From the NCBI GenBank assembly GCA_947643225.1, contig CANRVH010000001.1:6868-70867 (forward strand): a stretch of DNA of 64,000 nt, in the 5' to 3' direction. This DNA comes from an uncultured Clostridia bacterium. GTDB lineage: Bacteria > Bacillota_I > Bacilli_A > RF39 > UBA660. Both the position numbers and the translations under genes were made by a program. This document shows, piece after piece, positions 1 through 55,103 of this stretch (position 1 is its first letter; each line of letters starts with the position of its first letter). Below the pieces are notes generated by a model. It searched no databases and was not told where the DNA came from. It saw nothing but the letters and a program-made list of their open reading frames with translations.

Positions 1-2
1 AT

Positions 3-287
3 TCCGATTTTAGAGAAGAAGTTAAGAATGTCAATATTAAAACTCCTGATATTTTTAGTTTTAATTTTTATGGAGATGATGCAAAATGGGAGACTATAGT
101 TAATTTTGTTGTAAATCATAGAGATTGTGAAAGTATAGAAATTTTAACCCATTGTGGTTATGTAGATGAGGACACAAAACAAAAAACTTCTTATATACTA
201 CGCGAAGTTGAGCTTATAGAACTAAGAAAATTAAAAAAACATTCATTTTACAAAGAGTATAAATTAAGTAAATTCAGCAATCTATAG
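3..287 (+). CDS. 3' fragment of an unknown CDS; the 5' end lies outside the window. It is probably cargo of the mobile element.
   Basis: Frame 3 is open from the window edge to TAG at 285-287 (…THCGYVDEDTKQKTSYILREVELIELRKLKKHSFYKEYKLSKFSNL*). No start codon falls in the window. It is in the same orientation as the downstream element genes. Confidence 0.3.
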   Translation, partial: SDFREEVKNVNIKTPDIFSFNFYGDDAKWETIVNFVVNHRDCESIEILTHCGYVDEDTKQKTSYILREVELIELRKLKKHSFYKEYKLSKFSNL

Positions 288-319
288 TAGTTTGTTTATA
301 AACGAATGGCGGTGATTCA

Positions 320-1294
320 ATGAAAAATAATATGCTTATATATATATCAAAAGATGGTAATGTAAAAGTAGATGTTAATATACAAAATGAAGATATATGG
401 ATGAGTCAAGATGTAATGGCTAATCTTTATGATACAACGAAACAAAATATTAGTTATCATTTAAATAATATATTTAAGGAAGAAGAACTTAATAAAGATT
501 CAGTTGTCAAAGATTTCTTGACAACTGCTAGTGATGGTAAAAACTATAATGTTTTGCACTATAATTTAGATGCAATTATAGCTGTTGGATATAGAATTAA
601 CTCTAAAAAGGCAACTGAATTTAGAATTTGGGCGACAAAAGTTTTAAAAGAATATATGATTAAAGGTTTTTCCTTAAATGATGAAAGATTAAAAAATAAT
701 GGAGAAAATCCATACTTTGAAGAATTACTTGATAGAATACGTGATATTAGATCTTCAGAAAAAATATTTTGGAGAAAAGTATTAGATATTTATGCAACTT
801 CAATTGATTACAATCCAAAAGATAAACTATCAATAGATTTTTTCAAAACCGTGCAGAATAAAATGCATTATGCTACCCATGGCAACACAGCAGCCGAGGT
901 AATATTTACACGAGTTGATTCTAATAAAGAAAATTTAGGGCTCACTAATTTTAAAGGTGCTTATCCAACAAAAAGTGAAACTGAAATTGCAAAAAACTAT
1001 TTAACAGAAGAAGAACTTAATACTTTAAACAGAATGGTGTCTGCTTATTTAGATGTTGCAGAAATTAATGCACTAGATAGACATCCTATGACAATGAAAG
1101 ATTGGGTTAATGAGTTAGATACATTTTTAAAGATGACAAGAAAAGATATTTTAAAAGATAATGGGAAAATGTCACATGAAGAAGCATTGAAGAAAGCTCA
1201 TGAAGAATATGATAAATATATTCGGACTCACTTAACAACTGCAGAACAAGATTATCTTGATGTATTAAACAAAGAAGTAGAAGAATTAAGGTGA
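320..1294 (+). CDS. RhuM-family (COG3943-like) protein
   Basis: 324 aa. The N-terminus IYISKDGNVKVDVNIQNEDIWMSQDVMANLYDTTKQNISYHLNNIFKEEEL and the GYRINSKKATEFRIWATKVLKEYMIKGF motif match the conserved core of RhuM-family proteins. The RBS is ggcggtg upstream. Confidence 0.8.
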   Translation: MKNNMLIYISKDGNVKVDVNIQNEDIWMSQDVMANLYDTTKQNISYHLNNIFKEEELNKDSVVKDFLTTASDGKNYNVLHYNLDAIIAVGYRINSKKATEFRIWATKVLKEYMIKGFSLNDERLKNNGENPYFEELLDRIRDIRSSEKIFWRKVLDIYATSIDYNPKDKLSIDFFKTVQNKMHYATHGNTAAEVIFTRVDSNKENLGLTNFKGAYPTKSETEIAKNYLTEEELNTLNRMVSAYLDVAEINALDRHPMTMKDWVNELDTFLKMTRKDILKDNGKMSHEEALKKAHEEYDKYIRTHLTTAEQDYLDVLNKEVEELR

Positions 1295-1298
1295 TATT

Positions 1299-1925
1299 AT
1301 GGCTAAATTTTCAAATTTACTAGTAATGCTTGAATTACTAAATACTGGTAGAAAATATAGTGTTAAAGAATTATCATCAGCTTTAGAGGTATCAGAAAGA
1401 GTAATTAGAGAATATAAATTATTTTTAGAAGAAGCTGGAATTTTTGTAGATACAATACGAGGTCCCTATGGTGGTTATATTTTAAGAAAAAATATTACTA
1501 TTCCTCCTCTTTTAATAGATAATAATGATATAAATATAATAAAACAAGTTATTAAAAATACTACTAATAATAAATTAAAGTCTAGTTTGAAAAATATTGA
1601 AAATAAAATAACAAAAAACTTATTAGAATTGGAAAATAACAATACTTCGTTTATAAACACAGAAGAAGAGTTAAAAGTATATAATGCTCTAAATAAAGCA
1701 ATAAAATATAATTATAAAGTAAAAATTAAGTACACTAATTTACAACACGGAGAATCGGTTAGGACTATCTATCCACTGGGAATGTATCTTTTTCAAAACG
1801 AATGGTGGTGTTCATCTTATTGGGAAGAAAAAGACGATATGAGACAATTTCATATTAAAAGAATTTTGGAGTGTAAAATCCTAGATTCAACATTTAATCC
1901 TAAAAAAATAAATATAAAATTTTAG
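1299..1925 (+). CDS. HTH-WYL domain transcriptional regulator (YafY/BrxR-like)
   Basis: The N-terminal HTH (LLNTGRKYSVKELSSALEVSERVIREYKLFLEEAGIFVDTIRGPYGGYIL) is typical of HTH_11/DeoR-N. The C-terminus has a WYL-like segment (VRTIYPLGMYLFQNEWWCSSYWEEKDDMRQFHIKRI). It starts 4 nt after the RhuM stop, so it is probably translationally coupled. Confidence 0.7.
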   Translation: MAKFSNLLVMLELLNTGRKYSVKELSSALEVSERVIREYKLFLEEAGIFVDTIRGPYGGYILRKNITIPPLLIDNNDINIIKQVIKNTTNNKLKSSLKNIENKITKNLLELENNNTSFINTEEELKVYNALNKAIKYNYKVKIKYTNLQHGESVRTIYPLGMYLFQNEWWCSSYWEEKDDMRQFHIKRILECKILDSTFNPKKINIKF

Positions 1926-1979
1926 TACAGACCAAATACCGCCTATATAAGTGGTATTTTATTTATGGGAGGGAGAAAA

Positions 1980-2450
1980 ATGTCAAACGAGAAAGAAATA
2001 AAACATTATATAGAAGTGTTTTATAATTATAACCCAGATAGGGGTACTCAAGAGGATTTTACTTATTCGCATATTGTCACGAATAGAGATCCTTTATTAT
2101 ATATGGAAAGATTTCATGGTGCTAAAGGATTTAGGTTTTTTGATGTTGATGTTTCTGATAATTCATTGAATAAAGAAAAAAGAACAAATATAAGCCCTAT
2201 GTATTATTATGGAAGGTATATGGCAGAACAAGAAATAGAGCAAGTTCATAATGTAATGCCGTTTACAATTAATATTACAAAAATGATTTATTGCTATTGT
2301 GGATGCTTGGTTACTGATTTGAATGAAGGAGATATGACATTAGAAACTTATGCAAACTTAGTAAATAATGAAGAACCTAATTTTGAAAGTAAGCAATTAC
2401 TAAAAATGTCCGTTGCATGTCCTAAAAAATGTGCTAAAATGGTAATATAG
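1980..2450 (+). CDS. hypothetical protein with Cys motifs (CYCGC…CPKKC)
   Basis: ORF in the same operon as the RhuM and WYL genes. ATG at 1980 with a GGGAGGGAG RBS is preferred over the ATG at 1965. No recognisable family. An intrinsic terminator follows it. Confidence 0.5.
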   Translation: MSNEKEIKHYIEVFYNYNPDRGTQEDFTYSHIVTNRDPLLYMERFHGAKGFRFFDVDVSDNSLNKEKRTNISPMYYYGRYMAEQEIEQVHNVMPFTINITKMIYCYCGCLVTDLNEGDMTLETYANLVNNEEPNFESKQLLKMSVACPKKCAKMVI

Positions 2451-2473
2451 GATAATTAGAAGAAGGACTGAGT

Positions 2474-2504
2474 TTGGAGAGATTTTATCTCTCTTTTTTG
2501 CGTT
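2474..2504 (+). terminator. rho-independent terminator after the RhuM-WYL-unknown operon
   Basis: GGAGAGATTTTATCTCTC hairpin followed by TTTTTTG. Confidence 0.7.
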
Positions 2505-2689
2505 CTTTTTTAATTATTCTATCAGAAAGGAGCGTGAAATATGAATGAAATATATTTAAACTGTCGGAGACTATAATGGGTCTTAGGGATTTCTCCCTAA
2601 CAAGAAAAGGGTGTGATAGCACCATGCTTGATAGTTTGAAATTATACTATGTGTCATAAGATGGAGATGATAATCTGAAAAACAAATGG

Positions 2690-3208
2690 ATGTATAGAAA
2701 TGATGTAGAAAGAAATTTAGGTGTATCAAGGAAACAATTAAATCATGCTATTAAAGTAATGGAAAAATATCATTATTTTGAAAATTGGATTTGGTATAAA
2801 TTAGGGCCAACTGATTTAATTGTTTTATTTAATTTAGAATTTGTTGATTGGTTAAAAGATGTATATTTTAATAAAGATGGATTTTTCTTAGACAGAGAAA
2901 TCCATTTTTTAAATGAAAAAATTAAAGATTTAGAAAATGAATTAGGTATTTCTCATTACGAGAAAAATTATCCATATCTAAATGTAAAAGAACTACAAGA
3001 ATACTTTGATAAAAGTAATAGCTCTATTTTAAAGGCAATTGAAAGAATGAATAGAAAAATTGATTGTAAATGCTATAAAGATGGAAAATTATATATTACT
3101 CCTACTGGAGTAAAATGGTTAGATCAAAACTATTATAGAAAATCATACCTTAAAGAGTTGTTAAATTATAAAAAAATACTAAATGAAAAGGAGAATAAAA
3201 ATGACTAA
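2690..3208 (+). CDS. hypothetical protein, possibly DNA-binding (element cargo)
   Basis: 172-aa ORF. The C-terminal segment VKELQEYFDKSNSSILKAIERMNRK looks HTH-like. No confident family assignment. Confidence 0.4.
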   Translation: MYRNDVERNLGVSRKQLNHAIKVMEKYHYFENWIWYKLGPTDLIVLFNLEFVDWLKDVYFNKDGFFLDREIHFLNEKIKDLENELGISHYEKNYPYLNVKELQEYFDKSNSSILKAIERMNRKIDCKCYKDGKLYITPTGVKWLDQNYYRKSYLKELLNYKKILNEKENKND

Positions 3209-3593
3209 AGTTGATAGAAGAAAGAAAATAAATATCATGTTAAATGATGAAGAAAGAAGAATAATTACAGAAAAAGCAGTTGAATATGGATTTGGTCCAC
3301 ATCTTGCTACCTATGTTAGAAGTGCTTGTATTTATGAATCTTTATATAAAGAAGATATAGAAGGTAAAAATGAAATAATTAAAATAATGAGTGATTATAT
3401 TAGTGTTGTTAATAGAATACAATATGAGCAATCACAGTTAACTAAAAAAATTATGTTAAGTGAAGGAGATATACACATGATTAAAGATAATAATACTCTT
3501 CTTCATAATGAAATAAGAAAGCTAATTAAGACAATTGAAAATACATTAACAGTTAAACGTGTAAAAGAAACTAAGCAGAAACTAAATAAATAG
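3201..3593 (+). CDS. MobC-like ribbon-helix-helix protein (mobilisation accessory type)
   Basis: RRKKINIMLNDEERRIITEKAVEYGFGPHLATYVRSACI resembles the MobC/RHH family core (R…I.VRLT.EE…L…A…G.S.S.Y.R). ATG 3201 with an AAAGGAG RBS. It overlaps the upstream ORF. Confidence 0.5.
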   Translation: MTKVDRRKKINIMLNDEERRIITEKAVEYGFGPHLATYVRSACIYESLYKEDIEGKNEIIKIMSDYISVVNRIQYEQSQLTKKIMLSEGDIHMIKDNNTLLHNEIRKLIKTIENTLTVKRVKETKQKLNK

Positions 3594-3659
3594 CTTCTGC
3601 TTTTTCTTAAAGTATTATTTTACAATTTTTCTCATAGTTTTAAATAAAGGAGATGAGTT

Positions 3660-3857
3660 ATGGATTCTAATGATATTATGAGAAGTAAAGAAGTAAAATA
3701 TAAGAATAAAGAAATACTTTTAGAAGTGGCTCTTTCCTTAAATAAAGAGTTATTTGATGAAAATAAAATTTCATATAAAATGTTTAAATATACAGAAGAA
3801 AATATTTTAAAAGAATTAAAAATTTGTAATGTAAGTGGTGCAAATGCTAATACATGA
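3660..3857 (+). CDS. small hypothetical protein immediately upstream of the serine recombinase; could be a recombination directionality factor
   Basis: 65-aa ORF with an AAGGAG RBS. The proposed role rests on position only. Confidence 0.25.
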   Translation: MDSNDIMRSKEVKYKNKEILLEVALSLNKELFDENKISYKMFKYTEENILKELKICNVSGANANT

Positions 3858-3897
3858 AAATAATATGGTATAATGCTATTAGAAAGGAGAAGAAGAG

Positions 3898-5607
3898 TTG
3901 GATTTATATACTGTTCGAAAGCAGTTAAATATGGGAATGCCACTTACAAGTATAAAATTAAGAGTAACAGATTATGCAAGAGTATCAACAGATCATTTAG
4001 AACAAAAAAAATCTCTTCAAAATCAAGTGGAACATTTTGAACAATATATAAAAGAAAATCCAAATTGGACTTATACACCTGGTTATGTAGATGATGGAAT
4101 AACTGGTACAAGTGATGTTAAAAGAGATAACTTTATGAAAATGATTGAAGATGCTAGAGGTGGTAAATTTGATTTAATAGTTACCAAAGAAATTTCTAGA
4201 TTTTCAAGAAATACTCTTGATAGTATTAAATATACAAGAGAACTTTTATCGTATGGAGTGGCTGTTTTATTTGTAAATGATAATATTAATACTGCCCTAC
4301 CTGATTCAGAACTAAGACTTACTATTATGGCTTCCATGGCACAAGATGAAATAAGAAGATTATCAGAACGTGTTAAATTTGGTATGAATCGTGCAATAGA
4401 ACGCGGAGAAATATTAGGGAATGATTTACTTTATGGTTATAAAAAAGATAAAGATACTGGAGTATTAAATATTATAGAGGAAGAAGCAAAAGTTGTTAGA
4501 AGAATTTATGAACTATATACAGTTGAAGAATTAACACTTTCTAAAATAGTTAAAACTTTAAATAGCGAAGGATTAAAAACTTGTCAAGGTAAGAAATGGT
4601 GTATATCTACAATTTCACGGATGATTGAAAATCCTAAATATAAAGGATATTATTGTGCAAGAAAATCTGAAATAGTAGATTATATGACTAAAAAGATAAA
4701 ATACTTTGAAAAAGATGATTGGGTTATTTATGAGGATAAAACAAGAATACCACCAATAATTGATGAGGATTTATGGGATAGAGCTAATAATCGTTTAATA
4801 ACAAGAAAAAAAGCATTTAGCGAACGAAAAGAGGATAAAAGTATTTATAAAAATAGATACTTATATAGTGCTAAAATATTTTGTGCTGAACACAATACAG
4901 TTTTTCATAGAAGAGAATTTAGAAAAAATAAAAAAGATATTACTTGGGTTTGTTCCGAATATTTAAAAAATGGTAAATCTAATTGTGATTCACCAAATAT
5001 TAGAGAATCTGAACTAGATTCAATTTTTAAAGATTTAATTTCTAAACTTCAAATTGATTCTAACCAAGTAGTTGAAACTCTTATGAATTATTACAAACAT
5101 TTAGAAATTGATACTGGTATAGATGAAGAAATAAGTTTGAGAGAAAAAGAAATAAATAATCTTTATGCTAAAAAAGATAAATTATTAGAACTTAGTTTAC
5201 AAGGTAGTTTATCAAATACTGAATTTTATGAAAGGAATAGTTCTTTTAATGAAAAAATTAAAGTTCTTGATAATGAACTTAATAAGTTAAAAAGTCAAAA
5301 AGATGAACTAAAAGGAACAACAGATAAAACTAAAGAACTTGCTGAAATCTTAAAACAAAAAGTTAATTCTAAATCTACAATAGATAAAATAATTAGTTCT
5401 TTACTAGAGCGTATTGTTGTATCTAAAATATGTAATGATAAAAACAATATGGAATTAAATATATTTTTATCTTACAAGGAGAATGACGAAACAAAAAAAC
5501 TACAACCTATTTTAAGAAGTAGTTATGAATTTAAAAGAGGATATGACACACAAGGAACTAAAAGATATAAGGTCAATTATCAAGTGAATTGTTATTTTTG
5601 TCTATAA
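3898..5607 (+). CDS. large serine recombinase (resolvase/invertase catalytic domain, recombinase domain and C-terminal coiled-coil)
   Basis: YARVSTDHLEQ carries the catalytic Ser. The resolvase core reads DDGITGT…FDLIVTKEISRFSRNTLD and a recombinase domain follows. At 569 aa it is typical of integrative-element integrases. TTG at 3898 with a GAAAGGAG RBS, or ATG at 3931, could be the start. A TGGTATAAT extended -10 lies at about 3866. Confidence 0.85.
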   Translation: MDLYTVRKQLNMGMPLTSIKLRVTDYARVSTDHLEQKKSLQNQVEHFEQYIKENPNWTYTPGYVDDGITGTSDVKRDNFMKMIEDARGGKFDLIVTKEISRFSRNTLDSIKYTRELLSYGVAVLFVNDNINTALPDSELRLTIMASMAQDEIRRLSERVKFGMNRAIERGEILGNDLLYGYKKDKDTGVLNIIEEEAKVVRRIYELYTVEELTLSKIVKTLNSEGLKTCQGKKWCISTISRMIENPKYKGYYCARKSEIVDYMTKKIKYFEKDDWVIYEDKTRIPPIIDEDLWDRANNRLITRKKAFSERKEDKSIYKNRYLYSAKIFCAEHNTVFHRREFRKNKKDITWVCSEYLKNGKSNCDSPNIRESELDSIFKDLISKLQIDSNQVVETLMNYYKHLEIDTGIDEEISLREKEINNLYAKKDKLLELSLQGSLSNTEFYERNSSFNEKIKVLDNELNKLKSQKDELKGTTDKTKELAEILKQKVNSKSTIDKIISSLLERIVVSKICNDKNNMELNIFLSYKENDETKKLQPILRSSYEFKRGYDTQGTKRYKVNYQVNCYFCL

Positions 5608-5637
5608 GTTAGACATATAATTTTTCACTTGGCGACT

Positions 5638-6252
5638 TCATTTTCGCGCACTTTGTTCAAATAGACATACAAAGTCACCAGTACCACCAATAAATGCACT
5701 ACTCATAGCAGCAAAACTAACAGAAGTATCAATATTAACATCTTTTTTTGGATTAAGACCAGCTTCACGAATTGCCCATTCAAGAGTCATTTCAGGCATA
5801 CCTCCAGCACGACCACCAATAATTGTTTTCCCCTTTAGATCTTCCAGTTTAAAATTATCAATTTTCTTTCTAGAAACAATAAAATTACCATCTTTTTGAG
5901 TAAGTTGAGCGAATGTTTTTAAATAATCTTTTTCCCCGCTATTATAAATATAAATAGTTGCTTCACTTCCAGAAAAACCAATATCAGCATCTCCTGCTAA
6001 AACAGCAGCAGTAACTTTATCAGCTCCAGGTGTTAAACTCAAATTAATATCAATTCCCTCGTCCCTAAAAAATCCTTTTTCAATAGCAACATATTGAGGT
6101 GCATAAAAAATTGTATGTGCAACCTCAGCTACAGTAATCTTTTTTAATTTTTCCTTTTTATCCTTTTTTTGATCATTAAAATTAAAGAATATAGCACAAA
6201 TAGCTAATAATAAAATAATAATACTAACTACATATAAAATAATTTTTTTCAA
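5638..6252 (-). CDS. NMT1/THI5 (SsuA-like) ABC-transporter substrate-binding protein, apparently truncated at the C-terminus (204 aa versus about 320 aa typical)
   Basis: Signal/anchor MKKIILYVVSIIILLLAICAIFF, then the SsuA-like fold motifs (ITVAEVAHTIFYAPQYVAIEKGFFRDEGIDINL…GDADIGFSG). The ORF stops 30 nt from the recombinase stop. Confidence 0.55.
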   Translation of the reverse strand: MKKIILYVVSIIILLLAICAIFFNFNDQKKDKKEKLKKITVAEVAHTIFYAPQYVAIEKGFFRDEGIDINLSLTPGADKVTAAVLAGDADIGFSGSEATIYIYNSGEKDYLKTFAQLTQKDGNFIVSRKKIDNFKLEDLKGKTIIGGRAGGMPEMTLEWAIREAGLNPKKDVNIDTSVSFAAMSSAFIGGTGDFVCLFEQSARK

Positions 6253-6322: not shown

Positions 6323-6351
6323 TTGCCAAATAAAAAGAAATATGCTATAAT
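6323..6351 (+). promoter_or_regulatory. sigma-70-type promoter (TTGCCA-N17-TATAAT) for the adhesin gene
   Basis: Read directly: ttgccaaataaaaagaaatatgctataat. Confidence 0.5.
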
Positions 6352-6384
6352 AAGAGACATTAAATTCGATAGGGGGATAATAGA

Positions 6385-7656
6385 ATGAAAAATAATAAAA
6401 TAACAAAAACAATGTTAGTATTACTAATTACAATTACATCATTTTTTACAACAATGAGTAATGCCTTTGCTGAAGTGCCAAATAAAATTAATGTGACATC
6501 AACACCAGCTGTCAAAGGATATATTGGAGAAAAAGTAAACTTTGGAACAAAATCATTAAATGATGGTAGTGTTGCATACTGTTTAGATTACAATAAGTTA
6601 ACTCCAGATCATGCTATTGGAACATTAGCAGGTGAAATGGATGCAGGAATGGCCTATTTAATTGAAAATGGTTATCCACATAAAACCATAACAGGAGATA
6701 AAGCAAAAGATTATTATATTACACAAGTAGCAATTTGGTGGTATTTAGATGAAACAACAGGATCAACAAACTTAACTAATGAATTTAAAACAACAGATAG
6801 TGATCCACAAAATTTAAGACCAACCATAAAAAAGCTAGTAGATAATGCCAAAATAGTTAAAAATAAAGGATACAAAAATCCAAGTCTATCAGCAACAATC
6901 ACAAATAGAAAATTAACGATCTCAACAGATAAAAAATATTATATTTCAGACGAGATAAAAGTAAATTTAACAGATTTAGAAAGTTATACAGTTTCATTAA
7001 CAACCGCACCTGAAGGAAGTTATATAGCAGATGGAAAAGGAAATAAGAAAACAACTTTCCAAAAAGGAGAAACATTTAAAGTTTATGTCAAACAAACTGA
7101 TCAAAAAATTAAAAAAAGTGATATTAAGATAAAAATTAGTGGAACAACAACAATAAATAAAGTATACAAGTATAATCCAGAAAATGATGTAGAGCAAAGA
7201 ATATTAACTGCAGTTCTTTATCCAACAACAATAAAAAAAGAACAAGATCTATCTTTGACAATCTCACCATCAAAAGTAACAATTAATAAAATTGATGCAG
7301 AAACAAAAAAAGCCTTAGCAGGGGCAGTTCTTGTAGTAAAAGACAAAGCTGGAAATATTGTTGCAGAATTTACAACAAGTGAAGAATCTTATATTATTGA
7401 AGACTTAAGTAATGGAGAATACGAAGTATCAGAAAAAAGTGCTCCCGAAGGATATATCTTAAGCGAAAAAACATATCAATTTACGATTGATGATGATAAC
7501 AGAAATCACACAGTCATATTTGAAAATTATAAAGAAATATATGTTCCAGATACAAACTCTAATAGCACAATAATGTATATACTAGGTACAATCATAATGG
7601 TATCAGGTATCTCATTTGTAATCTACAATGCTAAGAAAAAACAAATTAATAAATAA
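6385..7656 (+). CDS. thioester-domain (TED) surface adhesin with a CnaB/SpaA-type domain and a non-canonical sortase sorting signal
   Basis: Signal peptide present. The TED Cys motif AYCLDYNK and Gln motif YITQVAIWWY are both there. A CnaB-type domain reads AGAVLVVKDKAGN…EYEVSEKSAPEGY. The C-terminus is IYVPDTNSNST followed by a hydrophobic helix and a KKKQ tail. Confidence 0.75.
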   Translation: MKNNKITKTMLVLLITITSFFTTMSNAFAEVPNKINVTSTPAVKGYIGEKVNFGTKSLNDGSVAYCLDYNKLTPDHAIGTLAGEMDAGMAYLIENGYPHKTITGDKAKDYYITQVAIWWYLDETTGSTNLTNEFKTTDSDPQNLRPTIKKLVDNAKIVKNKGYKNPSLSATITNRKLTISTDKKYYISDEIKVNLTDLESYTVSLTTAPEGSYIADGKGNKKTTFQKGETFKVYVKQTDQKIKKSDIKIKISGTTTINKVYKYNPENDVEQRILTAVLYPTTIKKEQDLSLTISPSKVTINKIDAETKKALAGAVLVVKDKAGNIVAEFTTSEESYIIEDLSNGEYEVSEKSAPEGYILSEKTYQFTIDDDNRNHTVIFENYKEIYVPDTNSNSTIMYILGTIIMVSGISFVIYNAKKKQINK

Positions 7657-8299
7657 AAAGAAACATGAAGTAAGTTCTAATACGATTGCCATGATATCAA
7701 GTATTGTCATTTTATTAGGACTCTTCATTTTTTCTTATAATTATACTAAATCTAAAAAAATATTAGCCTATGAACAAATGAATAACATCTTTTATGAAGA
7801 TCATTCAAAGACAGAAAAGAAAGAAAATAAAAAACAACAAAAAGAAGAAAAAATACAAGAACAAGAGGAGAAAAAGGAAATCATCACAAATGATTACATA
7901 GGCTATTTAGAGATACCAAAAATAAAGTTAAAAAAAGGGTTTGTTAGTAAAAAATCAAGTGATAATGATGTGGAAAAAAATATCTTTATAGTAGAACAAT
8001 CTACCTATCCTGATAAAGAAAAAGGTAACTTCATTATTGCCGCACATTCAGGAACTGGCTGGAAAGCTTTCTTTAATGATTTATATCAATTAGAACAAGG
8101 TAATGAGATTTATGTTACTTATAAAAATAAAAAATATACCTATAAAATAGCAGATATTTATAAGCAGAAAAAAACAGGAACTATCGCTATATATAGAGAT
8201 TATAATAAAACAACATTAACATTAGTAACCTGCACAAACAATGATGATACATCACAGACAGTTTATATTGCTTATTTAGAAAAAATAGAAAATTTATAG
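7628..8299 (+). CDS. class B-type sortase
   Basis: N-terminal TM helix, the His motif IIAAHSG and the catalytic TLVTCT motif. It overlaps the end of the adhesin gene. An ATG at 7691 is an alternative start. Confidence 0.8.
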   Translation: MLRKNKLINKKKHEVSSNTIAMISSIVILLGLFIFSYNYTKSKKILAYEQMNNIFYEDHSKTEKKENKKQQKEEKIQEQEEKKEIITNDYIGYLEIPKIKLKKGFVSKKSSDNDVEKNIFIVEQSTYPDKEKGNFIIAAHSGTGWKAFFNDLYQLEQGNEIYVTYKNKKYTYKIADIYKQKKTGTIAIYRDYNKTTLTLVTCTNNDDTSQTVYIAYLEKIENL

Positions 8300-8315: not shown

Positions 8316-9293
8316 ATGATGAATGAATTATCTCTAATAGAAAAATTTAAAGTTGTCTTTGATATTACCAAATCAAATATCGTTTATCCAATTATTATAA
8401 TTTTTTTACTAATTATCAGCTTTCTATTTATAACAACAAATAAAAATAATGCCAAAGAAAGTAAAAAAGTTTATGGAAGCCTATATGCTATTTTAATGAT
8501 AATAATTTTAATTAAATATGCGACTTCATTAAAAACAATGATAGACTATATGATGAATCATTTATTTATTGTTTTTTACTTTCCCAATATTGCCGTTTAT
8601 TTAACAGCAATCCTCATCACAAATATCATCATGTGGATCAGTATGTTTAAATCATCTACTAAAACTATAATAAAAATAATCAATGCAACAATATTTTCTA
8701 TAATTCATTACATCTTACTTTTAATCCTTGGAATCATTACAACAAAAAAGATAGACGTCTTTAATCAAAAAGCACTATATGCTAATCACGATATTCATGC
8801 TTTAATTGAATTAAGCAGTAATATTTTTATAATATGGATGATCTTTCTTATCCTTTACAAAATAATTTATACTTATCTTGAAAGCAAAAAAGGACAAAAA
8901 ATCTATGATAACCAATTACTTGCAATAGAACAAGTCCAAAAAGTAGAAAAAGAAGGAACTGTAACAATTAATCTTCCAAAAAACATTAAAGAAGTAAGAG
9001 CACCATATCTAGTAAAAAGAGAAATGTCTAAAACAAGAATTGTTTATCAATTACCAAAACAAATGGAAAATACAGCTATTTATGAACAAATGTTGACTTT
9101 AGATGATTATAAATTATTAGTTTCCCTATTAAAAGAAGAAAAAGAAAAAGGGGTAAAAACAATCTTAAATAATCAGAAACACACGATAAACAAAGAAAAA
9201 ACAGAAGAAGAAAGGTTGACCCAAAAAAACAAACAGTCCCAACCAGAAAGTGGACTATCAGAATTGATGAGATTATATAAAAGTACAAGCTAA
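8316..9293 (+). CDS. polytopic membrane protein, function unknown
   Basis: Several hydrophobic helices and a charged C-terminal tail. A G6 run lies in the RBS (aggggggaat). Confidence 0.5.
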   Translation: MMNELSLIEKFKVVFDITKSNIVYPIIIIFLLIISFLFITTNKNNAKESKKVYGSLYAILMIIILIKYATSLKTMIDYMMNHLFIVFYFPNIAVYLTAILITNIIMWISMFKSSTKTIIKIINATIFSIIHYILLLILGIITTKKIDVFNQKALYANHDIHALIELSSNIFIIWMIFLILYKIIYTYLESKKGQKIYDNQLLAIEQVQKVEKEGTVTINLPKNIKEVRAPYLVKREMSKTRIVYQLPKQMENTAIYEQMLTLDDYKLLVSLLKEEKEKGVKTILNNQKHTINKEKTEEERLTQKNKQSQPESGLSELMRLYKSTS

Positions 9294-9335
9294 AATAAAA
9301 AAGTTAGTAAATAATTTTCAAATTATAACTAAGAG

Positions 9336-9366
9336 AAATAGAGAAAATATTTCTCTTTTTTGTAAA
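9336..9366 (+). terminator. rho-independent terminator
   Basis: AGAGAAATAGAGAAAATATTTCTCT hairpin followed by TTTTTG. Confidence 0.6.
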
Positions 9367-9449
9367 ATTCAAAATAAAATATGATCAATATATATCTAAA
9401 CTAAAGATTTTTCATTAACCATTTGCTACAATAAAACTAGGAAAAAATT

Positions 9450-10265
9450 CAAAATAAAAAGAAAAATAAGGCAGAAATACATATCCAATTTAGAAAAAAT
9501 AGAAGATTTTAATTTTGAAGAACAACGGTTACTATACCCCAATTCCAAAAGAATTGATCAAGATAGATACACCATATTATTAGAAAAAGAATACAACGAA
9601 GATTGTTTAAGTGTAGCAATTAACATTAAAACTAAAGCAGAGGAAGAATTTAACTATGATTATAGGCAAATAAAAAAATAATGAATAAAAATGGAAGAAA
9701 AGCATCTGCCTTTATTCGACAAGAGGAATTATTAAATAACTTAGACTTTAATGAAAAGGGATTAATGATAACAAATAATAGTATATGGTTAATTTTAGAT
9801 AATTAAAAAAATTCCCAGTAGAATACGACCATCAAATAAAAATAACAAGAATAGATTCCAACCAAGAAAATGAGTATGTAAGAAAAGTTGCAGAAGGATT
9901 CCAAAAAAAGTAGTGAAGCCAATCCAGACGACGATTTATTAGAAAATATCCTTAATACTATAAAGAGAAGCTTTTATCAACAGAAAAAATTTAAGATAGA
10001 ACATTATTTAGCCCAAATAGATAAAGAGCTTGTTGATACCATAACAATCATGTATAAAGATGATATTTCATTTATCTATAATGTAGCAGCAGATAAAAAA
10101 TATCGAAAAAGGGGAGTTTAATTAAAGCTGTAGTAAAAAGATTAGTCGAATTAGAAATAATCAAGTCATATTACCAAACAGAATATGAATATTATCCTGA
10201 AAAAATAAATCAGAAATTAGGATTTAAAATACTCTTTAGAGGAGTGAAATATACAAAACAATAAT
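9450..10265 (+). pseudogene. GNAT-family N-acetyltransferase pseudogene (multiple frameshifts and stops)
   Basis: GNAT motifs are spread over three frames: …VRKVAEGF…, IYNVAADKKYRKRGV (motif A) and LGFKILFRGVKYTKQ* (C-terminal). The only intact ORF is the 77-aa fragment at 9888-10121. Confidence 0.5.
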
Positions 10266-10363
10266 TACAGTACAAACTATGGAAAAGGACAATATACACT
10301 TTCTTGATAACACAACTTAAAATGAATTTAATCTCAAACTCCCCTAATTTCAAGCCAACTTTT

Positions 10364-10395
10364 CTTTGCCTAAAAATTTAGAATACGATATAATG
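10364..10395 (+). promoter_or_regulatory. promoter TTGCCT-N17-TATAAT upstream of pcrA
   Basis: Read directly: ttgcctaaaaatttagaatacgatataat. Confidence 0.45.
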
Positions 10396-10414
10396 AATTT
10401 AGAGGTAAAGAAAT

Positions 10415-23226: not shown

Positions 23227-25269
23227 ATGAAAAAGAAACTGATCATCATTATCCCCGTTATAATAGCCATAACAACCTTTTTTATTGTTTATCGCTATTA
23301 TAACAAAGAAGATAAAACGACAGCTTTAACTGTAGTAGAAAAAAGATGGATAGAGGAAAATAAAGACAAAGTAGTAGATTTTGAAATTATTAATGACTAT
23401 CCTCTATATGGAATGAATGGAGAAGGAGTTTTCTTTAATTTTACTGAAGATTTTGAAAAAAACATCAATCTAGAGTTTAATAAGATTCCATATTTAAAAG
23501 ATTCAACTCCAACAACGAACAGTTATAGAATACGTATTTTAAATAATAAAGACGAATTAACAAAAAAAGACTTACCCCTATTTACAGATAGCTATATTGC
23601 TATTGGTAAAACATATCAAAGACTAAACTACATCAAAGATATGAAAAATTTAACCTTTGGAGTTTTTAAGAATGATTCAGAAGAAGTTAGTTATTACCTA
23701 AAATCAGGAAGTAATCTATCTTTTAAAAACTATAATACAATAGATGAATTATATACTGCTTTAGATAATAATGAAGTAAATATGATTATTGTTCCTAATA
23801 TTATGTATTTAGACAAAACAATAAATTCCAAATACTCTATTAATTATTATTTTCCAGAAATGACAAAAAAAATAGTTTTAACATTAAGTGATAGTAATGA
23901 AGAGTTAAATAGAATCGTGAAAAAATATTATACAAAATGGAAAAAAACAAAGTATGTAAAAGAATATAATCAATCATACTTAAATTATTATTTAGAAAAG
24001 AATAATATCTCTGCTAAAGCTAAAGCCTCTCTAATGTCAAAAAATTATATCTATGGATATGTAAAAAATGCTCCATATGAGACAAAAGTAAACCATAAAA
24101 TAAAAGGAATAGCTGGAGAATACATTGATCGAATTGCTCGACTTACAAATATTGAATTTAATTATAAGGAATACCCAAGTAAAAAGGAGTTAAAAAAAGC
24201 GATTAAAGAAGGAGAAGTAGATATCTACTTTGATTATTATAATTATTACGATGATAAATATCTAGCAACATTATCAACCTTTGTAGAAGAATATGTTGTC
24301 CTAGGCAAGCAAGAAGATAACCATATCATCAACTCATTTGAAAGCCTTAAAGGGGAAAACATAGTAATGTTAGAAGATGATTCTTTATATAACTATTTTG
24401 AAAATAATTCTCGCAGTAATATCACAAAAGTAAAGAATATAGAAGATTTATTGAAGAAAACTGAAGATAATGACAAAGTAATTGTAGTAGATAGAGAAAT
24501 ATATAATTATTACAAAAAAAACTTTAAAAAATATGATTTATTATACATGGATACCATGATGAATGACTATAAATTCATGATTAAAGAAAATAATAAAGCC
24601 TTTTATAATCTATTTAACTATATTATAAACACCAATTCATATTATAACTATCGTAATAGTGGTTTAGAGTCTCTTCAAGCATCAATTTTAGAAGATGCAA
24701 CATTTGAAAAAATATATGTATTTGTTCTAATTATTATATTTTTACCAATTATAGTAATAATAATAGTATATTTATATTTAAAATATAAAAAGAAAAGAAA
24801 AAAAGTAATCAAAATAGATCGCCATAAATATACGGATATGTTAACATCTTTAAAAAATAGAAACTACTTAAATACAAAAATGCCCGAATGGGGAGAATGT
24901 AAGGTATACCCACAAGCAATAGTTATGGTTGATTTAAATAATGTCAAGTATGTTAATGATAATCATGGACATGAAGCAGGAGATAAATTAATTATTAAAG
25001 CGGCTTCAACACTAGTAAATACCCAATTAGAAAATAGTGAAATTATTCGTACAGATGGAAATGAATTTCTAATATACCTAGTTGGTTATAGTCAAAAACA
25101 GGTAGATACATATACTAAAAAATTATTTAAAGAAATGAAAGAATTACCATATGATTTTGGAGCAGGGGTAGGGTATAGTATGATAGATGATGATATAAAA
25201 ACTTTAGATGATGCTATTAATGAAGCCACTCTAGATATGATTGCATCAAAAGAAGAACTAAAAAAATAA
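23227..25269 (+). CDS. membrane receptor with a large extracytoplasmic domain and a C-terminal degenerate GGDEF domain
   Basis: N-terminal TM helix, an extracellular region of about 460 aa, a second TM (IYVFVLIIIFLPIIVIIIVYLYL), then a GGDEF fold (…VMVDLNNVKYVNDNHGHEAGDKLI…). The signature reads RTDGNEF instead of RxGGDEF. Confidence 0.65.
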   Translation: MKKKLIIIIPVIIAITTFFIVYRYYNKEDKTTALTVVEKRWIEENKDKVVDFEIINDYPLYGMNGEGVFFNFTEDFEKNINLEFNKIPYLKDSTPTTNSYRIRILNNKDELTKKDLPLFTDSYIAIGKTYQRLNYIKDMKNLTFGVFKNDSEEVSYYLKSGSNLSFKNYNTIDELYTALDNNEVNMIIVPNIMYLDKTINSKYSINYYFPEMTKKIVLTLSDSNEELNRIVKKYYTKWKKTKYVKEYNQSYLNYYLEKNNISAKAKASLMSKNYIYGYVKNAPYETKVNHKIKGIAGEYIDRIARLTNIEFNYKEYPSKKELKKAIKEGEVDIYFDYYNYYDDKYLATLSTFVEEYVVLGKQEDNHIINSFESLKGENIVMLEDDSLYNYFENNSRSNITKVKNIEDLLKKTEDNDKVIVVDREIYNYYKKNFKKYDLLYMDTMMNDYKFMIKENNKAFYNLFNYIINTNSYYNYRNSGLESLQASILEDATFEKIYVFVLIIIFLPIIVIIIVYLYLKYKKKRKKVIKIDRHKYTDMLTSLKNRNYLNTKMPEWGECKVYPQAIVMVDLNNVKYVNDNHGHEAGDKLIIKAASTLVNTQLENSEIIRTDGNEFLIYLVGYSQKQVDTYTKKLFKEMKELPYDFGAGVGYSMIDDDIKTLDDAINEATLDMIASKEELKK

Positions 25270-25282
25270 AGGTGTGATATAA

Positions 25283-26092
25283 ATGGAGCAAGTAAGGGAT
25301 TTCTTAAAAAGAGCAATTAATATTATTAATAGACCTTATATGAGAATATTACCTGGGCAACTTGCTTTTTTTTGCATTATGTCCTTAATTCCGATTATTG
25401 CTCTATTAGGTTCATTAGCCAGTTACTTTTCTATTTCTCTAGATTCAATAAAGGAAATAACATCTAATATTTTACCAATAGACTTATCAATGTTGTTTCC
25501 ATCCTCTACACTATCTGGTCAGGGACTAAACTTTAACATCATCGTTTTCTTTGTAACAGCATTTATTCTAGCCTCAAATGGAATGCATTCAGTAATTATT
25601 ACATCCAATGAAATATATAATGATCAAAGTAGAAGTGTAATAGAAAGAAGAATAAAGGCAATTGCAATGACCATTGTATTAGTAGGACTACTATTTTTTT
25701 TACTAGCAATTATGGTTTTTAGTGATTTATTTTTTGAAATATTAAAAGAATATGCCACTAACAAAAAGGCAGTAGATACTTTTTATATCGTTTATAATTA
25801 CTTAAAAGTACCAATATCTTTAATACTAATTTATTTTAATGTTAAACAACTATATTTAATGGCACCAGATAACAAGGTATCTACAAAATCAATAAAATAT
25901 TCTTCAATATTTACAACTTCTGTTTGGATAATAGGAACTCAAATATACTCAATATATGTAAAATTTTTTTCAAACTATAACCTTTTTTATGGAAGTATAT
26001 CCAATATGATTATTTTGATGGTCTGGGTTTATTTTTTAGCCTATATTTTTGTCTTAGGAATGGCCCTAAGTGCAAGTAATAATCAAAATTAA
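25283..26092 (+). CDS. YihY/BrkB (virulence factor BrkB/RNase BN-like) family membrane protein
   Basis: The N-terminus YMRILPGQLAFFCIMSLIPII and six TM helices are typical of the YihY family. Confidence 0.6.
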   Translation: MEQVRDFLKRAINIINRPYMRILPGQLAFFCIMSLIPIIALLGSLASYFSISLDSIKEITSNILPIDLSMLFPSSTLSGQGLNFNIIVFFVTAFILASNGMHSVIITSNEIYNDQSRSVIERRIKAIAMTIVLVGLLFFLLAIMVFSDLFFEILKEYATNKKAVDTFYIVYNYLKVPISLILIYFNVKQLYLMAPDNKVSTKSIKYSSIFTTSVWIIGTQIYSIYVKFFSNYNLFYGSISNMIILMVWVYFLAYIFVLGMALSASNNQN

Positions 26093-26233: not shown

Positions 26234-27769
26234 ATGAGAAAATATTTAAACATTATATCTATAATAATAGTTCTTGGCCTAATATACCCATTAAATATTT
26301 TTGCAGAAATAAAGATTGTAGATGATATATATAGTGAAACAATTCCTAGAGAATATGCCTTTACACCTAAGTTTATTGAAAATATAACAACAATGGAGGG
26401 ATCGGAGAGTTATAAAAAAATATGTCCTAATATTAATTGTTGGATAAGTGCTAGAAGAAAAAGCGATGGAAGTTTTGATGATTATTGGGCAATGTATAAA
26501 AATGTGGGAGTATGGAAAAGAAAAATTGTTGATATGAAAATCACTTTAGTCGATGTTGTTGATACTAATCCATCATCAAAATGTGCATACCATCTTAAAG
26601 AATTAGGAGAGGATATAGCTGATGATGATTATATTCGATTCCATATAATGCCAAAACAACTTGGCATAGAAGTGTTTACCGATTGTAGAAGCGAAGGAAC
26701 TACAGGTATTTTTAAAATAGAATTTTTTGATAACAATACAGGAGAAGAGCTTAAAGATTTAAAGAGTGTATTAAATTATGCTGACATTGATGGAGACGAA
26801 AGAATTTTATTGGATAATAACAGAGTAAAAGAAATGATTTATTATAAAACAGCCGAACAACATTTTCAACCAATAGAATTTAGTAATGATTATACTGTTC
26901 TAAGTGGAACAGAAAGATGGACTTGTACATTGCCAAGTGGAATGACAAAGGATGTCGAATGTATTAAATGTATTAATGGAAAATGTGAAAGAAATGCCCG
27001 AGAAAATACTTGTTTAGATCAAGATGGTAAAAATGGAAATAATGATAATTGCGGTGATTGCAATAAATCAGGTATGGTTACTACATTAAACGAAGGATCA
27101 TTTTTAGTAGGATGGGGAGGCTGGTATGTTGGTTTTTCTGCTGCTAGTCTTTTAAGAATCGAAGATCCAATTCCAATTAAAGAAGTCGATAAAGAAAAAG
27201 TAAAAGCCAAAGATGAAGAAGAAATTAATTATACAATAGAACAATACGTCCCAAACCAATCAACTGAACATTATTATAAATCATGGGTGCTTATTGATGA
27301 ACTAGAAAGTATATTAGAAACAAGCATTGATAATATTAAAATTAGAACCAATGGTAATGAAGATGTTACAGATAAATTTAATATCATACTAGAGAATAAT
27401 ACTTTAACAATTTCTGCTAAACAAGACTATGTATCATCAGATGAATTTTATAATTATGCAACTCAAGATGAATTCTATAATAGAACATTTTATATAGACA
27501 TTAAAGCAAAAGTCAGCAAAGATACAAAAGGACTAAAAGAAATTAAAAATCATACAGTATTGAGAATAGAATATAGTGATGGTACTCCAACAAAAGATAT
27601 TCTATCTAATGAGGTTACGACCATGATAGAAGAAGAAAAAATAGAAGAAATTATAGAAGTACCTAATACTGCTAAATTTATTGGTAAGATTGTTTTTATA
27701 GTTGGAAGTTTACTTATAATTAGTGGAATATTAATTATTATTAAAGTAAAAAAGAATCGACTTAATTAA
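26234..27769 (+). CDS. secreted Cys-rich surface protein with a C-terminal sorting-signal-like anchor (VPNTA + TM + KKNR)
   Basis: Signal peptide present. Cys cluster CTLPSGMTKDVECIKCINGKCER…CGDCNKSG. The C-terminus EVPNTAKFIGKIVFIVGSLLIISGILIIIKVKKNRLN parallels the VPDTN signal of the TED adhesin. Confidence 0.5.
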   Translation: MRKYLNIISIIIVLGLIYPLNIFAEIKIVDDIYSETIPREYAFTPKFIENITTMEGSESYKKICPNINCWISARRKSDGSFDDYWAMYKNVGVWKRKIVDMKITLVDVVDTNPSSKCAYHLKELGEDIADDDYIRFHIMPKQLGIEVFTDCRSEGTTGIFKIEFFDNNTGEELKDLKSVLNYADIDGDERILLDNNRVKEMIYYKTAEQHFQPIEFSNDYTVLSGTERWTCTLPSGMTKDVECIKCINGKCERNARENTCLDQDGKNGNNDNCGDCNKSGMVTTLNEGSFLVGWGGWYVGFSAASLLRIEDPIPIKEVDKEKVKAKDEEEINYTIEQYVPNQSTEHYYKSWVLIDELESILETSIDNIKIRTNGNEDVTDKFNIILENNTLTISAKQDYVSSDEFYNYATQDEFYNRTFYIDIKAKVSKDTKGLKEIKNHTVLRIEYSDGTPTKDILSNEVTTMIEEEKIEEIIEVPNTAKFIGKIVFIVGSLLIISGILIIIKVKKNRLN

Positions 27770-39893: not shown

Positions 39894-40023
39894 TACTTTT
39901 TTCTTATTCCCAATTATAATAAAACTATAGAAAGAGAAAAAGAAAATGAAATTATTTCATATATAGTAAGTTATATTTCTTTGATAAAAAATAAATTATG
40001 TCATCAATAGGTGGGGTGTGCAT

Positions 40024-55026: not shown

Positions 55027-55103
55027 TGGTAGCGCCGGGGAGATTCGAACTCTCGACCTATCGGGTATGAACCGATTGCTCTAGCCAACTGAGCTACAGC
55101 GCC
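55027..55103 (-). tRNA. tRNA with a CAU anticodon (elongator Met or lysidine-type Ile2), 77 nt, with an encoded CCA
   Basis: The reverse complement folds as a cloverleaf: GGCGCUG/UA/GCUC-AGUUGGCUA-GAGC/A/AUCGG-UUCAUAC-CCGAU/AGGUC/GAGAG-UUCGAAU-CUCCC/CGGCGCU/A/CCA. It has two G-U pairs in the acceptor stem and one T-stem mismatch. The anticodon-stem base lacks the three G-C pairs of an initiator. Confidence 0.85.

Follow-up and report, generated by a model that had tools for sequence, protein, structure and literature searches.

Thioester domains (TEDs) capture amines on host proteins, and sortases are textbook His–Cys–Arg enzymes. In the Bacillus anthracis adhesin BaTIE, a thioester between Cys71 and Gln266 has been shown experimentally, and the first isopeptide bond joins Lys297 and Asn373. 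The Class II TED is defined by a β-sandwich of about 75 residues that interrupts the thioester fold between helix 3 and strand P, and the Gln and Trp of its TQxx(hydrophobic)W motif adjoin the thioester and are inessential to it, the bonding Gln being located on a later strand (PMC6194298). Class II TED adhesins also act between bacteria, as one of them is needed for efficient conjugation of a Bacillus subtilis plasmid (PMC8092201). On the side of the sortases, the hallmark of class B is a 27-residue helical insertion between strands β6 and β7 (PMC3019223), and the described sorting motifs nearest to those reported below belong to class D, namely LPNTA (B. anthracis SrtD), LPDTS and LPDTA (B. 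subtilis YhcS/SrtD) and LPQTGS (C. perfringens SrtD, CpSrtD) (PMC4498605, PMC3222306). Here we analyse a 64-kb stretch of DNA (64,000 nucleotides of contig CANRVH010000001.1, assembly GCA_947643225.1; hereafter the window) with a G+C content of 26.5%, in which an adhesin gene, an overlapping sortase gene and a gene for a polytopic membrane protein follow one another. We consider it likely that these form a surface-display operon composed of a TIE adhesin, an unclassified general sortase that reads VPxT and carries Gln in place of the triad Arg, and a membrane partner; the host of the operon would be a gut bacterium of the RF39 type, AT-rich and with a small genome.

The adhesin and its upstream signals are laid out as follows, in positions of the window.

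6323–6351, + strand: promoter-like site (TTGCCA, 17 nt, TG-n-TATAAT), 34 nt 5′ of the adhesin ATG
6371–6377, + strand: ribosome-binding site AGGGGGA, read from the sequence
6385–7656, + strand: TIE adhesin gene (423 amino acids (aa)): signal peptide, Class II TED, CnaB/SpaA stalk, VPDTN signal
6385–6471, + strand: Sec signal peptide, residues 1–29, with predicted AFA|E cleavage (inferred from sequence and model)
6580–6582, + strand: codon of Cys66 (AYCLD), predicted thioester Cys (conservation; BaTIE alignment)
6721–6738, + strand: TQVAIW accessory motif, Thr113–Trp118, which aligns with TQLAVW of BaTIE
6880–7161, + strand: β-sandwich insertion, about residues 166–259, the Class II TED hallmark (AlphaFold2 (AF2) model)
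7195–7197, + strand: codon of Gln271 (VEQRIL), predicted thioester-forming Gln (conservation; BaTIE alignment)
7270–7533, + strand: CnaB/SpaA stalk (PF17802, residues 297–382) with a predicted Lys302–Asn381 isopeptide bond and catalytic Glu350
7543–7557, + strand: VPDTN sorting motif, residues 387–391, with predicted cleavage after Thr390 (conservation)
7570–7653, + strand: hydrophobic helix (residues 396–416; helix 396–421 in the model) and positive tail KKKQINK

The adhesin is a Class II TED protein of the TIE kind and, as such, a new member of a known family. An earlier note on this DNA, made from the letters alone, had proposed a thioester-domain adhesin that also has a CnaB-type isopeptide domain, and family models and structures agree with it: the protein matches the Pfam TED family PF08341 (E 8.9e-11, 42.6 bits; cutoff 22), its stalk matches the SpaA/CnaB-like family PF17802 (E 6.4e-18), and BaTIE (6FWV) is its best solved relative both by sequence (E 2.7e-17) and by fold. 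The AF2 model, built with 49 homologues (mean predicted local distance difference test score (pLDDT) 87.2), retrieved 6FWV first in Foldseek (E 3.9e-24), followed by 6FWY, Enterococcus faecium TIE86 (E 1.2e-13), and the stalk also resembles pilins; the CnaB2 structure 8BDW matches the adhesin as well (E 5.9e-8), and the TQXA_dom model TIGR03934 stays under its cutoff (17.3 bits; 30.4). The insertion appears in the model as an all-β segment (residues 167–259) between a helix (145–161) and a hairpin (261–293), and the signal peptide region as a helix (4–23) with low pLDDT at residues 19–28.

The motifs AYCLDYNK, TQVAIWWY and VPDTN–helix–KKKQ are all present at the positions that the earlier note gave them, and its assignment of the thioester holds in part: Cys66 of AYCLDYNK is the candidate Cys, but Gln114 of TQVAIW is accessory, and Gln271 is the predicted bonding Gln (PMC6194298). 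When the BaTIE fragment was added to the family alignment, Cys66 fell opposite Cys71, Gln114 opposite the Gln of TQLAVW, Gln271 opposite Gln266 and Lys302 opposite Lys297. Cys66, Gln271, Lys302, Glu350 and Asn381 are all invariant in an alignment of 49 adhesin homologues, as are Thr113, Gln114 and Trp118 of the accessory motif, and Cys66 is the sole Cys of the adhesin. Given this mapping, the invariance and the single Cys, we predict a Cys66–Gln271 thioester and a Lys302–Asn381 isopeptide bond that Glu350 would catalyse. The context of Cys66 (A-Y-C-L-D) follows the [YFL]-C-hydrophobic-hydrophilic motif of TEDs; in that of Gln271 (V-E-Q-R-I-L) a Glu precedes the Gln, so that the weak motif hydrophobic-Q-polar-hydrophobic-hydrophobic fits in part.

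The likeness to BaTIE (BA5258/BasC) thus extends over the Class II TED with its β-sandwich insertion, the YC-hydrophobic-polar Cys, the TQxx(hydrophobic)W motif, the hairpin Gln and a CnaB isopeptide stalk that leads to a C-terminal sortase signal (PMC6194298). The two proteins are nevertheless only about 20% identical, and the adhesin described here has one CnaB domain (three in BaTIE), ends in VPDTN (LPATG in BaTIE) and is encoded in an operon with its own sortase. Moreover, as VPDTN begins six residues past the isopeptide Asn381, the adhesin has no wall-spanning linker, whereas BaTIE carries 38 unstructured residues before its motif. Host attachment through such a protein is plausible. The promoter-like site upstream is the best in its region (11/12 matches, extended −10), but such sites are no commoner there than expected from shuffled sequence, and we take it as weak positional evidence.

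The sortase has the following layout; its residue conservation was assessed in a set of 132 representatives (50% identity) that extends to E ~2e-28.

7628–8299, + strand: sortase gene (223 aa): N-terminal membrane anchor, disordered Lys/Glu linker, catalytic domain (about residues 88–223)
8045–8047, + strand: codon of catalytic His140 (AAHSG), conserved in 132/132 representatives
8195–8197, + strand: codon of Arg190 (IYRDY), in the β6/β7 connection
8231–8233, + strand: codon of catalytic Cys202 (TLVTC), conserved in 132/132 representatives
8255–8257, + strand: codon of Gln210, which takes the place of the triad Arg of other sortases where strand 8 starts

That this gene, which overlaps the adhesin gene by 29 nt, encodes a sortase with a TLVTC motif was read correctly at the outset: the product matches the Pfam sortase family PF04203 (MEROPS C60; E 4.3e-21, 75.4 bits; cutoff 26.6), the match ending at profile position 119 of 125. 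No NCBIfam sortase class cutoff is reached, the nominally highest class score being that of class C (72.6 bits; cutoff 160), ahead of class E (62.6; 160), and the two class D models, NF033746 and NF058671, were also both missed (class D, 49.8 bits against 165; SrtD, 70.3 against 140). In a search of the PDB with the family profile, C. perfringens SrtD (4D70; E 9.7e-16) came first, followed by class C, A and E enzymes and no class B chain; by sequence, the second-best PDB match was an Ebp class C sortase. Foldseek on the AF2 model (pLDDT 72.5) supported the sortase fold without separating classes A, C, D and E.

The earlier note had called the enzyme a dedicated class-B-type sortase. On this reading, an enzyme of the kind of Staphylococcus aureus SrtB (NPQTN) or Spy0129 would process only VP[DN]T[NA] substrates. 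There is a precedent in Streptococcus pyogenes Spy0129, a class B sortase that attaches the thioester adhesin Cpa via VPPTG (PMC3019223), and substrate and sortase genes adjoin in the window, as is typical of accessory sortases. However, the class B model TIGR03064 scored 21.7 bits (cutoff 153.75) and covered the N-terminal membrane and linker part only, no class B chain was matched by the profile in the PDB at E ≤ 1e-3, and no class B structure appeared among the top 50 Foldseek matches. In place of the 27-residue helical insertion (PMC3019223), the model has 14 residues and no helix between strands 168–181 and 196–201 (that is, β6 and β7). The substrates carry VPxTx rather than NPQTN or the (N/S/P)PxTG types of class B, a second predicted substrate lies 18 kb away and position 5 of the motif extends beyond Asn and Ala. 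The class B assignment is ruled out by the family model, the profile-to-PDB search and the loop length, and, as family-model and structural tests contradict it, a dedicated class B enzyme strikes us as extremely improbable. The resemblance to Spy0129/Cpa is that of a thioester adhesin with a V/P-rich, non-LPXTG signal and a neighbouring sortase (PMC3019223); Spy0129 is a true class B enzyme with a long β6/β7 insertion that polymerises pili, whereas the enzyme described here has neither the insertion nor a pilus context.

The sortase is best described as belonging to an unclassified clade closest to class D. CpSrtD is its nearest solved relative, and class D enzymes likewise accept Asp, Asn or Gln at position 3 and a residue other than Gly at position 5 and have genes beside those of their substrates (PMC4498605, PMC3222306). 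With the class D motifs LPxTA and LP[DN]T[AS], the substrates of the clade have [DN]-T-[A/S] in common, but position 1 is Val rather than Leu (76/76 operons) and position 5 is free, being also Asn, Gly, Lys, Asp, Leu or Tyr. The enzyme further differs from class D in falling under both cutoffs, in carrying Gln for the triad Arg and in having no evident link to sporulation.

The sorting motif can be followed across relatives, which were sought in a collection with a single genome for each species; 574 stretches encode relatives of the sortase, and the best 80 loci (one locus per species) were inspected, motif counts being drawn from the 76 orthologous operons among them. Positions 1–4 are Val (76), Pro (76), Asp or Asn (39 and 37) and Thr (76), and position 5 is Ala (31), Asn (16), Ser (14), Gly (9), Lys (4) or Asp (2), with small polar residues after it. 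As Val, Pro, Asp/Asn and Thr are invariant while the flanking positions vary, the motif goes beyond chance. In the wider adhesin family Pro388 and Thr390 remain invariant, and VPFTG is the commonest motif (86/120), the others including VPDTN, VPNTN, VPDTG, VPNTA and IPETG. The tripartite sorting signal is complete in every substrate, no LPXTG signal was found in about 1.3 Mb of related loci, and we found no description of VPXTG in the literature searched.

Even where the sortases are 94–96% identical, the residue at position 5 of their substrates can differ (Ser versus Asn), and at 86–89% identity it is Gly, Asn, Ser, Ala or Asp; as near-identical enzymes pair with differing residues, position 5 seems to drift freely, without co-evolution of the enzyme. 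At five loci of the same clade, with sortases of about 38–48% identity, the adjacent and mostly overlapping substrates end in VPDTL, VPITG, VPNTG, VPRTY and IPDTK, and from these remote pairings we take the recognised core to be [V/I]-P-x-T. The motif VP[DN]T[NA] of the earlier note is therefore right in its non-canonical VP core but too narrow, as position 5 is free and position 3 is Asp or Asn in the close clade only and Phe, Ile or Arg elsewhere. At L094:4001-6043, a 680-aa open reading frame (ORF) joins a SpaA stalk, IPDTK, a membrane helix and a sortase domain in one frame, and is either a natural substrate–sortase fusion or an assembly or frameshift artefact.

Substrates within the window itself were sought by a sorting-signal-like C terminus among ORFs of at least 80 aa throughout the 64 kb. 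Only two genuine ORFs carry one (6385–7656 and 26234–27769); a third match of this screen, a truncated NMT1 gene, was a false positive. The second of the two is a predicted substrate located 18 kb from the adhesin–sortase operon.

26234–27769, + strand: second predicted substrate (511 aa): signal peptide, Cys-rich N-terminal region, isopeptide/AgI-II C2-like domain, VPNTA, helix, KKNR
27659–27673, + strand: VPNTA motif of the second substrate

This protein carries 11 Cys and matches TIGR04226 (1.7e-10; an isopeptide-forming fimbrial domain) and PF17998 (2.9e-6); it had no relatives in JGI metagenomes and no match in the PDB. The observation that a non-LPXTG signal is common to the adhesin and a second protein of the window (VPNTA, helix, KKNR) was sound, and, as this substrate lies 18 kb away, the sortase is more likely the general sortase of the lineage than the ‘dedicated’ one proposed earlier. 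Directly upstream (23227–26092) are genes for a membrane GGDEF diguanylate cyclase that includes a solute-binding-like domain and for a BrkB-family protein; given the GGDEF gene next to the VPNTA protein, cyclic-di-GMP control of surface display is possible.

The fimbrial domain of this second protein also bears on a different role for the enzyme, that of a class C-like pilus polymerase which would join a thioester tip adhesin to a shaft pilin, for example, the product of 26234–27769 with its RrgB-type isopeptide domain. The nominal lead of the class C model, the second place of the Ebp sortase among PDB matches and the resemblance of the adhesin stalk to pilins would all fit such a machine. 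The class C score is nonetheless far under its cutoff of 160; by sequence and model, the enzyme has neither the DP[WFY] lid motif nor a C-terminal membrane helix, and a YPK-type pilin motif is missing from both substrates. In none of the 80 loci does the operon include a gene for a shaft or basal pilin, and the presumed shaft protein is both 18 kb away and not conserved, so that we regard a pilus polymerase as quite improbable.

The residue at position 210 sets the clade apart. There is no Arg within residues 203–223 of the sortase, and HMMER alignments place the Arg of Streptococcus agalactiae SrtA opposite Gln210 and that of B. anthracis SrtA opposite Thr211. Gln210 lies at the start of predicted strand 8 (residues 209–222) and eight residues past the Cys, a spacing equal to that of Cys208 and Arg216 in S. 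pyogenes SrtA (PMC9520033). Among the representatives, 130 of 132 have Gln at this position; in 200 close homologues, TQT or SQT occurs in all 25 of the most frequent tail variants (161/200), and any Arg within 16 residues after the Cys is found in 7. The clade is a diverged one, with members reaching down to 34% identity. Its only well-conserved catalytic-domain Arg is Arg190 (Arg in 111/132, Lys in 13/132). This residue was considered as a reader of Asp or Asn at motif position 3 and rejected, as the VPFTG branch retains it and it is less conserved than Gln210.

According to a 2026 paper, all sortases have a His–Cys–Arg triad (PMC13257024), and our literature search found no description of natural sortases lacking the triad Arg. 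In S. pyogenes SrtA, R216A abolishes activity and motif positions 1 and 2 are contacted at their backbone by the Arg, whose role is under active debate (PMC9520033). An evolved S. aureus SrtA with Arg replaced by Ser, specific for LMVGG, is by contrast an efficient transpeptidase on a different motif (cited in PMC9520033). Like the clade described here, that enzyme has no triad Arg and reads the N-terminal part of the motif in an altered way, but it was engineered and has many other mutations, whereas the present clade is natural and old and uses Gln. We suggest that Gln210 could supply the hydrogen bonds that otherwise come from Arg, and that the change may be linked to the Val-first motif.

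The same facts admit the reading that the Arg-less sortase is catalytically impaired, its substrates staying anchored by their C-terminal membrane helix and VPxT being kept for some other purpose, perhaps because the stalk ends there or because a non-catalytic, sortase-like partner docks to it. The essential role of Arg in S. pyogenes SrtA (PMC9520033) speaks for it, as do the missing wall-spanning linker between the CnaB domain and VPDT and the Class II TED adhesin of pLS20, which functions without sortase anchoring (PMC8092201). Yet the His, the Cys and TLxTC are invariant in 132/132 diverged representatives, which indicates strong purifying selection on the catalytic apparatus, Gln210 is kept more strictly than any nearby residue (130/132), every substrate carries the full tripartite signal, and VPxT recurs on unrelated substrate families. 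Also, the evolved Arg-to-Ser SrtA stays efficient (PMC9520033). Impairment of the enzyme therefore seems unlikely to us, and we retain the reading of an active sortase.

The adhesin, the sortase and the membrane protein form a conserved core operon of RF39-type gut Bacilli. The third gene is located directly downstream of the sortase gene.

8316–9293, + strand: orphan polytopic membrane protein (gene 3; 325 aa)

The gene order is an NMT1-like gene (minus strand), adhesin, sortase, membrane protein, pcrA and a nucleotidyl transferase. Across the relatives, the adhesin was matched upstream of the sortase in 76/80 loci and pcrA downstream in 70/80; the upstream ORF overlaps that of the sortase by 8–68 nt in all 76 loci where it was called, and a membrane-protein ORF was called beside the sortase in 77/80, the gap being 6–57 nt in 74. 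These overlaps and short gaps are consistent with a single, translationally coupled transcription unit. The operon order is unchanged in the VPFTG branch. All 80 loci come from metagenome-assembled genomes of uncultured gut bacteria, labelled Bacilli, Tenericutes, Mollicutes, Mycoplasmatota, Candidatus Faecimonas or Clostridium sp. CAG:417, and Candidatus Faecimonas corresponds to the GTDB genus CAG-877 of the order RF39 (PMC8035907).

The gene 3 product was matched in 80/80 loci and, wherever its position was listed, on the downstream side of the sortase match. Its N-terminal half, a membrane domain with DYMMN...YFPN, is conserved, and its charged tail, which carries LTLDDYKLL, varies. No match in Pfam, in NCBIfam, in a search of 5.8 billion proteins or in the profile-to-PDB search gave it an identity, and the sources call it hypothetical. 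A relation to VKOR was dropped (the sole match, at chance level; E 0.037), as was one to the TrbL-like protein of locus L091 (see below), with which BLASTP found no similarity; the invariant residues (Phe, Pro, Asn, Tyr, Trp, Asp) do not suggest a hydrolase. A homologue (27% identity, E 8e-15) follows a related sortase at L093:4001-5787, a locus with sporulation genes (SpoIIP, GPR peptidase) and no adjacent sorting-signal protein, whose sortase, like that of one other representative, lacks the conserved Gln. As the pair occurs there without an adjacent substrate, sortase and membrane protein appear to be the more ancient unit, and gene 3 probably works with the sortase.

Beyond the operon itself, an active natural clade of sortases with a His–Cys–Gln triad (at least 130 clusters at 50% identity), a [V/I]-P-x-T rule and a dependence on the gene 3 family is an idea that we advance tentatively, as one that may prove right or wrong about equally, with some leaning to the latter. 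Such a clade would have its centre in gut Bacilli of the RF39 type and in the mobile elements of these bacteria, and the loss of Arg would accompany the changed recognition, in which any residue may come after the scissile bond.

The surroundings also bear on whether the cassette is a chromosomal host-colonisation factor or, instead, cargo of mobile elements for mating-pair adhesion in conjugation. At L091:2488-8633, a TED–SpaA protein ending in VPNTG and an overlapping Gln-type sortase are located in a conjugative element, adjoining TrbL/VirB6-like and TraC/VirB4-like genes, which suggests a role of that cassette in mating-pair adhesion. TIE-pLS20 (p34), needed for efficient conjugation of the B. 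subtilis plasmid pLS20, is likewise a conjugative Class II TED protein with a Cna stalk (PMC8092201); it has no sorting signal and is sortase-independent, whereas the window copy is chromosomal with a full signal. In the window, a serine-recombinase element is located immediately upstream: the stretch opens (1–6252) inside an integrated element (genes 320–5607) that encodes RhuM, a WYL regulator, a NikA-like protein and a large serine recombinase. This element splits an NMT1/SsuA-like binding-protein gene (5638–6252, minus strand), of which 204 aa are left as compared with about 330 aa when intact. As the GDFVxLFE codons precede the break in several other species too, it looks like a recurrent attachment site, and as the element boundary is inside the NMT1-like gene, the operon is chromosomal and outside the element. 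Moreover, the operon is flanked by the NMT1-like gene and pcrA whether or not the species carries the inserted element, it is beside pcrA in 70/80 species, and its conserved neighbourhood has no transfer genes. We consider mobile-element cargo a very improbable account of the window operon.

For the preferred reading, that of a chromosomal surface-display operon, we envision the following mechanism. The Class II TED would react covalently with a target amine through Cys66–Gln271, and the β-sandwich and the isopeptide-locked CnaB domain would hold the thioester domain away from the cell. The VPDTN–helix–KKKQ signal may keep the adhesin in the membrane until the sortase, whose translation is probably coupled to that of the adhesin via the gene overlap, cleaves after Thr390 with Cys202 and His140 and transfers the protein to a peptidoglycan precursor. 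Such an acceptor is plausible given the wall genes in the window (encoding an LCP–PASTA protein, YceG/MltG and an LtaS-like enzyme) and the prediction that RF39 bacteria are mostly walled and keep sortases (PMC10868615); FemAB is found near related loci. The clade would read a [V/I]-P-x-T core and be indifferent to the residue after Thr, and the sortase is probably the general sortase of the organism, also anchoring the VPNTA protein 18 kb off and probably acting together with the gene 3 membrane protein.

Several points weigh against this scenario. The proximity of Cys66 and Gln271 is taken from the alignment with BaTIE. The triad Arg is absent from the sortase and, as this residue is essential in S. 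pyogenes SrtA, activity cannot be assumed. The six-residue distance from stalk to motif, with no wall-spanning linker, is unusual for a wall-anchored protein and fits plain membrane anchoring. The notion of a general sortase derives from one distant substrate in a 64-kb window, and that substrate has no detectable relatives. Every step of the scenario is argued from computational evidence: the data show the domain identities, the conserved residues, the synteny and the joint occurrence of motif and sortase clade, from which the thioester and isopeptide bonds, the site of cleavage, the acceptor in the wall, the target of the adhesin and any part played by Gln210 or gene 3 are inferred.

As a system, the sortase would be a variant of known sortases, with a VPxT core, a free post-scissile residue, Gln for Arg and a fixed membrane partner. 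Bacteria of the RF39 type, with their reduced genomes, are abundant in the gut and uncultured. With the cassette in 76/80 loci and sortase relatives in 574 stretches, the operon is a good candidate for their attachment to host or partner cells. The wall-anchored proteome of this lineage will escape searches based on LPXTG entirely. A broad natural Gln clade with a shifted motif also provides a ready test of Arg as a catalytic versus a substrate-positioning residue, and an enzyme that reads VPxT and tolerates any residue after it could give an orthogonal tool for sortase-mediated protein ligation.

Some further features of the window may be recorded. Between gene 3 and pcrA is a segment of 1.1 kb (9294–10414) without any ORF longer than 77 aa, within which 9888–10121 resembles an acetyltransferase remnant; a DUF2935-like gene is present there in other loci, and the segment was considered as its decayed copy and rejected for lack of similarity. 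At 30700–32700, a 666-aa protein combines phosphonate-binding-like, LCP (LytR-CpsA-Psr) and PASTA domains, an unusual architecture for a wall-polymer ligase. The long ORFs of the window are almost all on the + strand, and the single tRNA gene in the 64 kb (Met, 55027–55103) is on the minus strand. Finally, 40018–41421 encodes a 467-aa protein with a partial thymidylate-synthase-like domain and a C-terminal PterinBD-DUF4346 domain.

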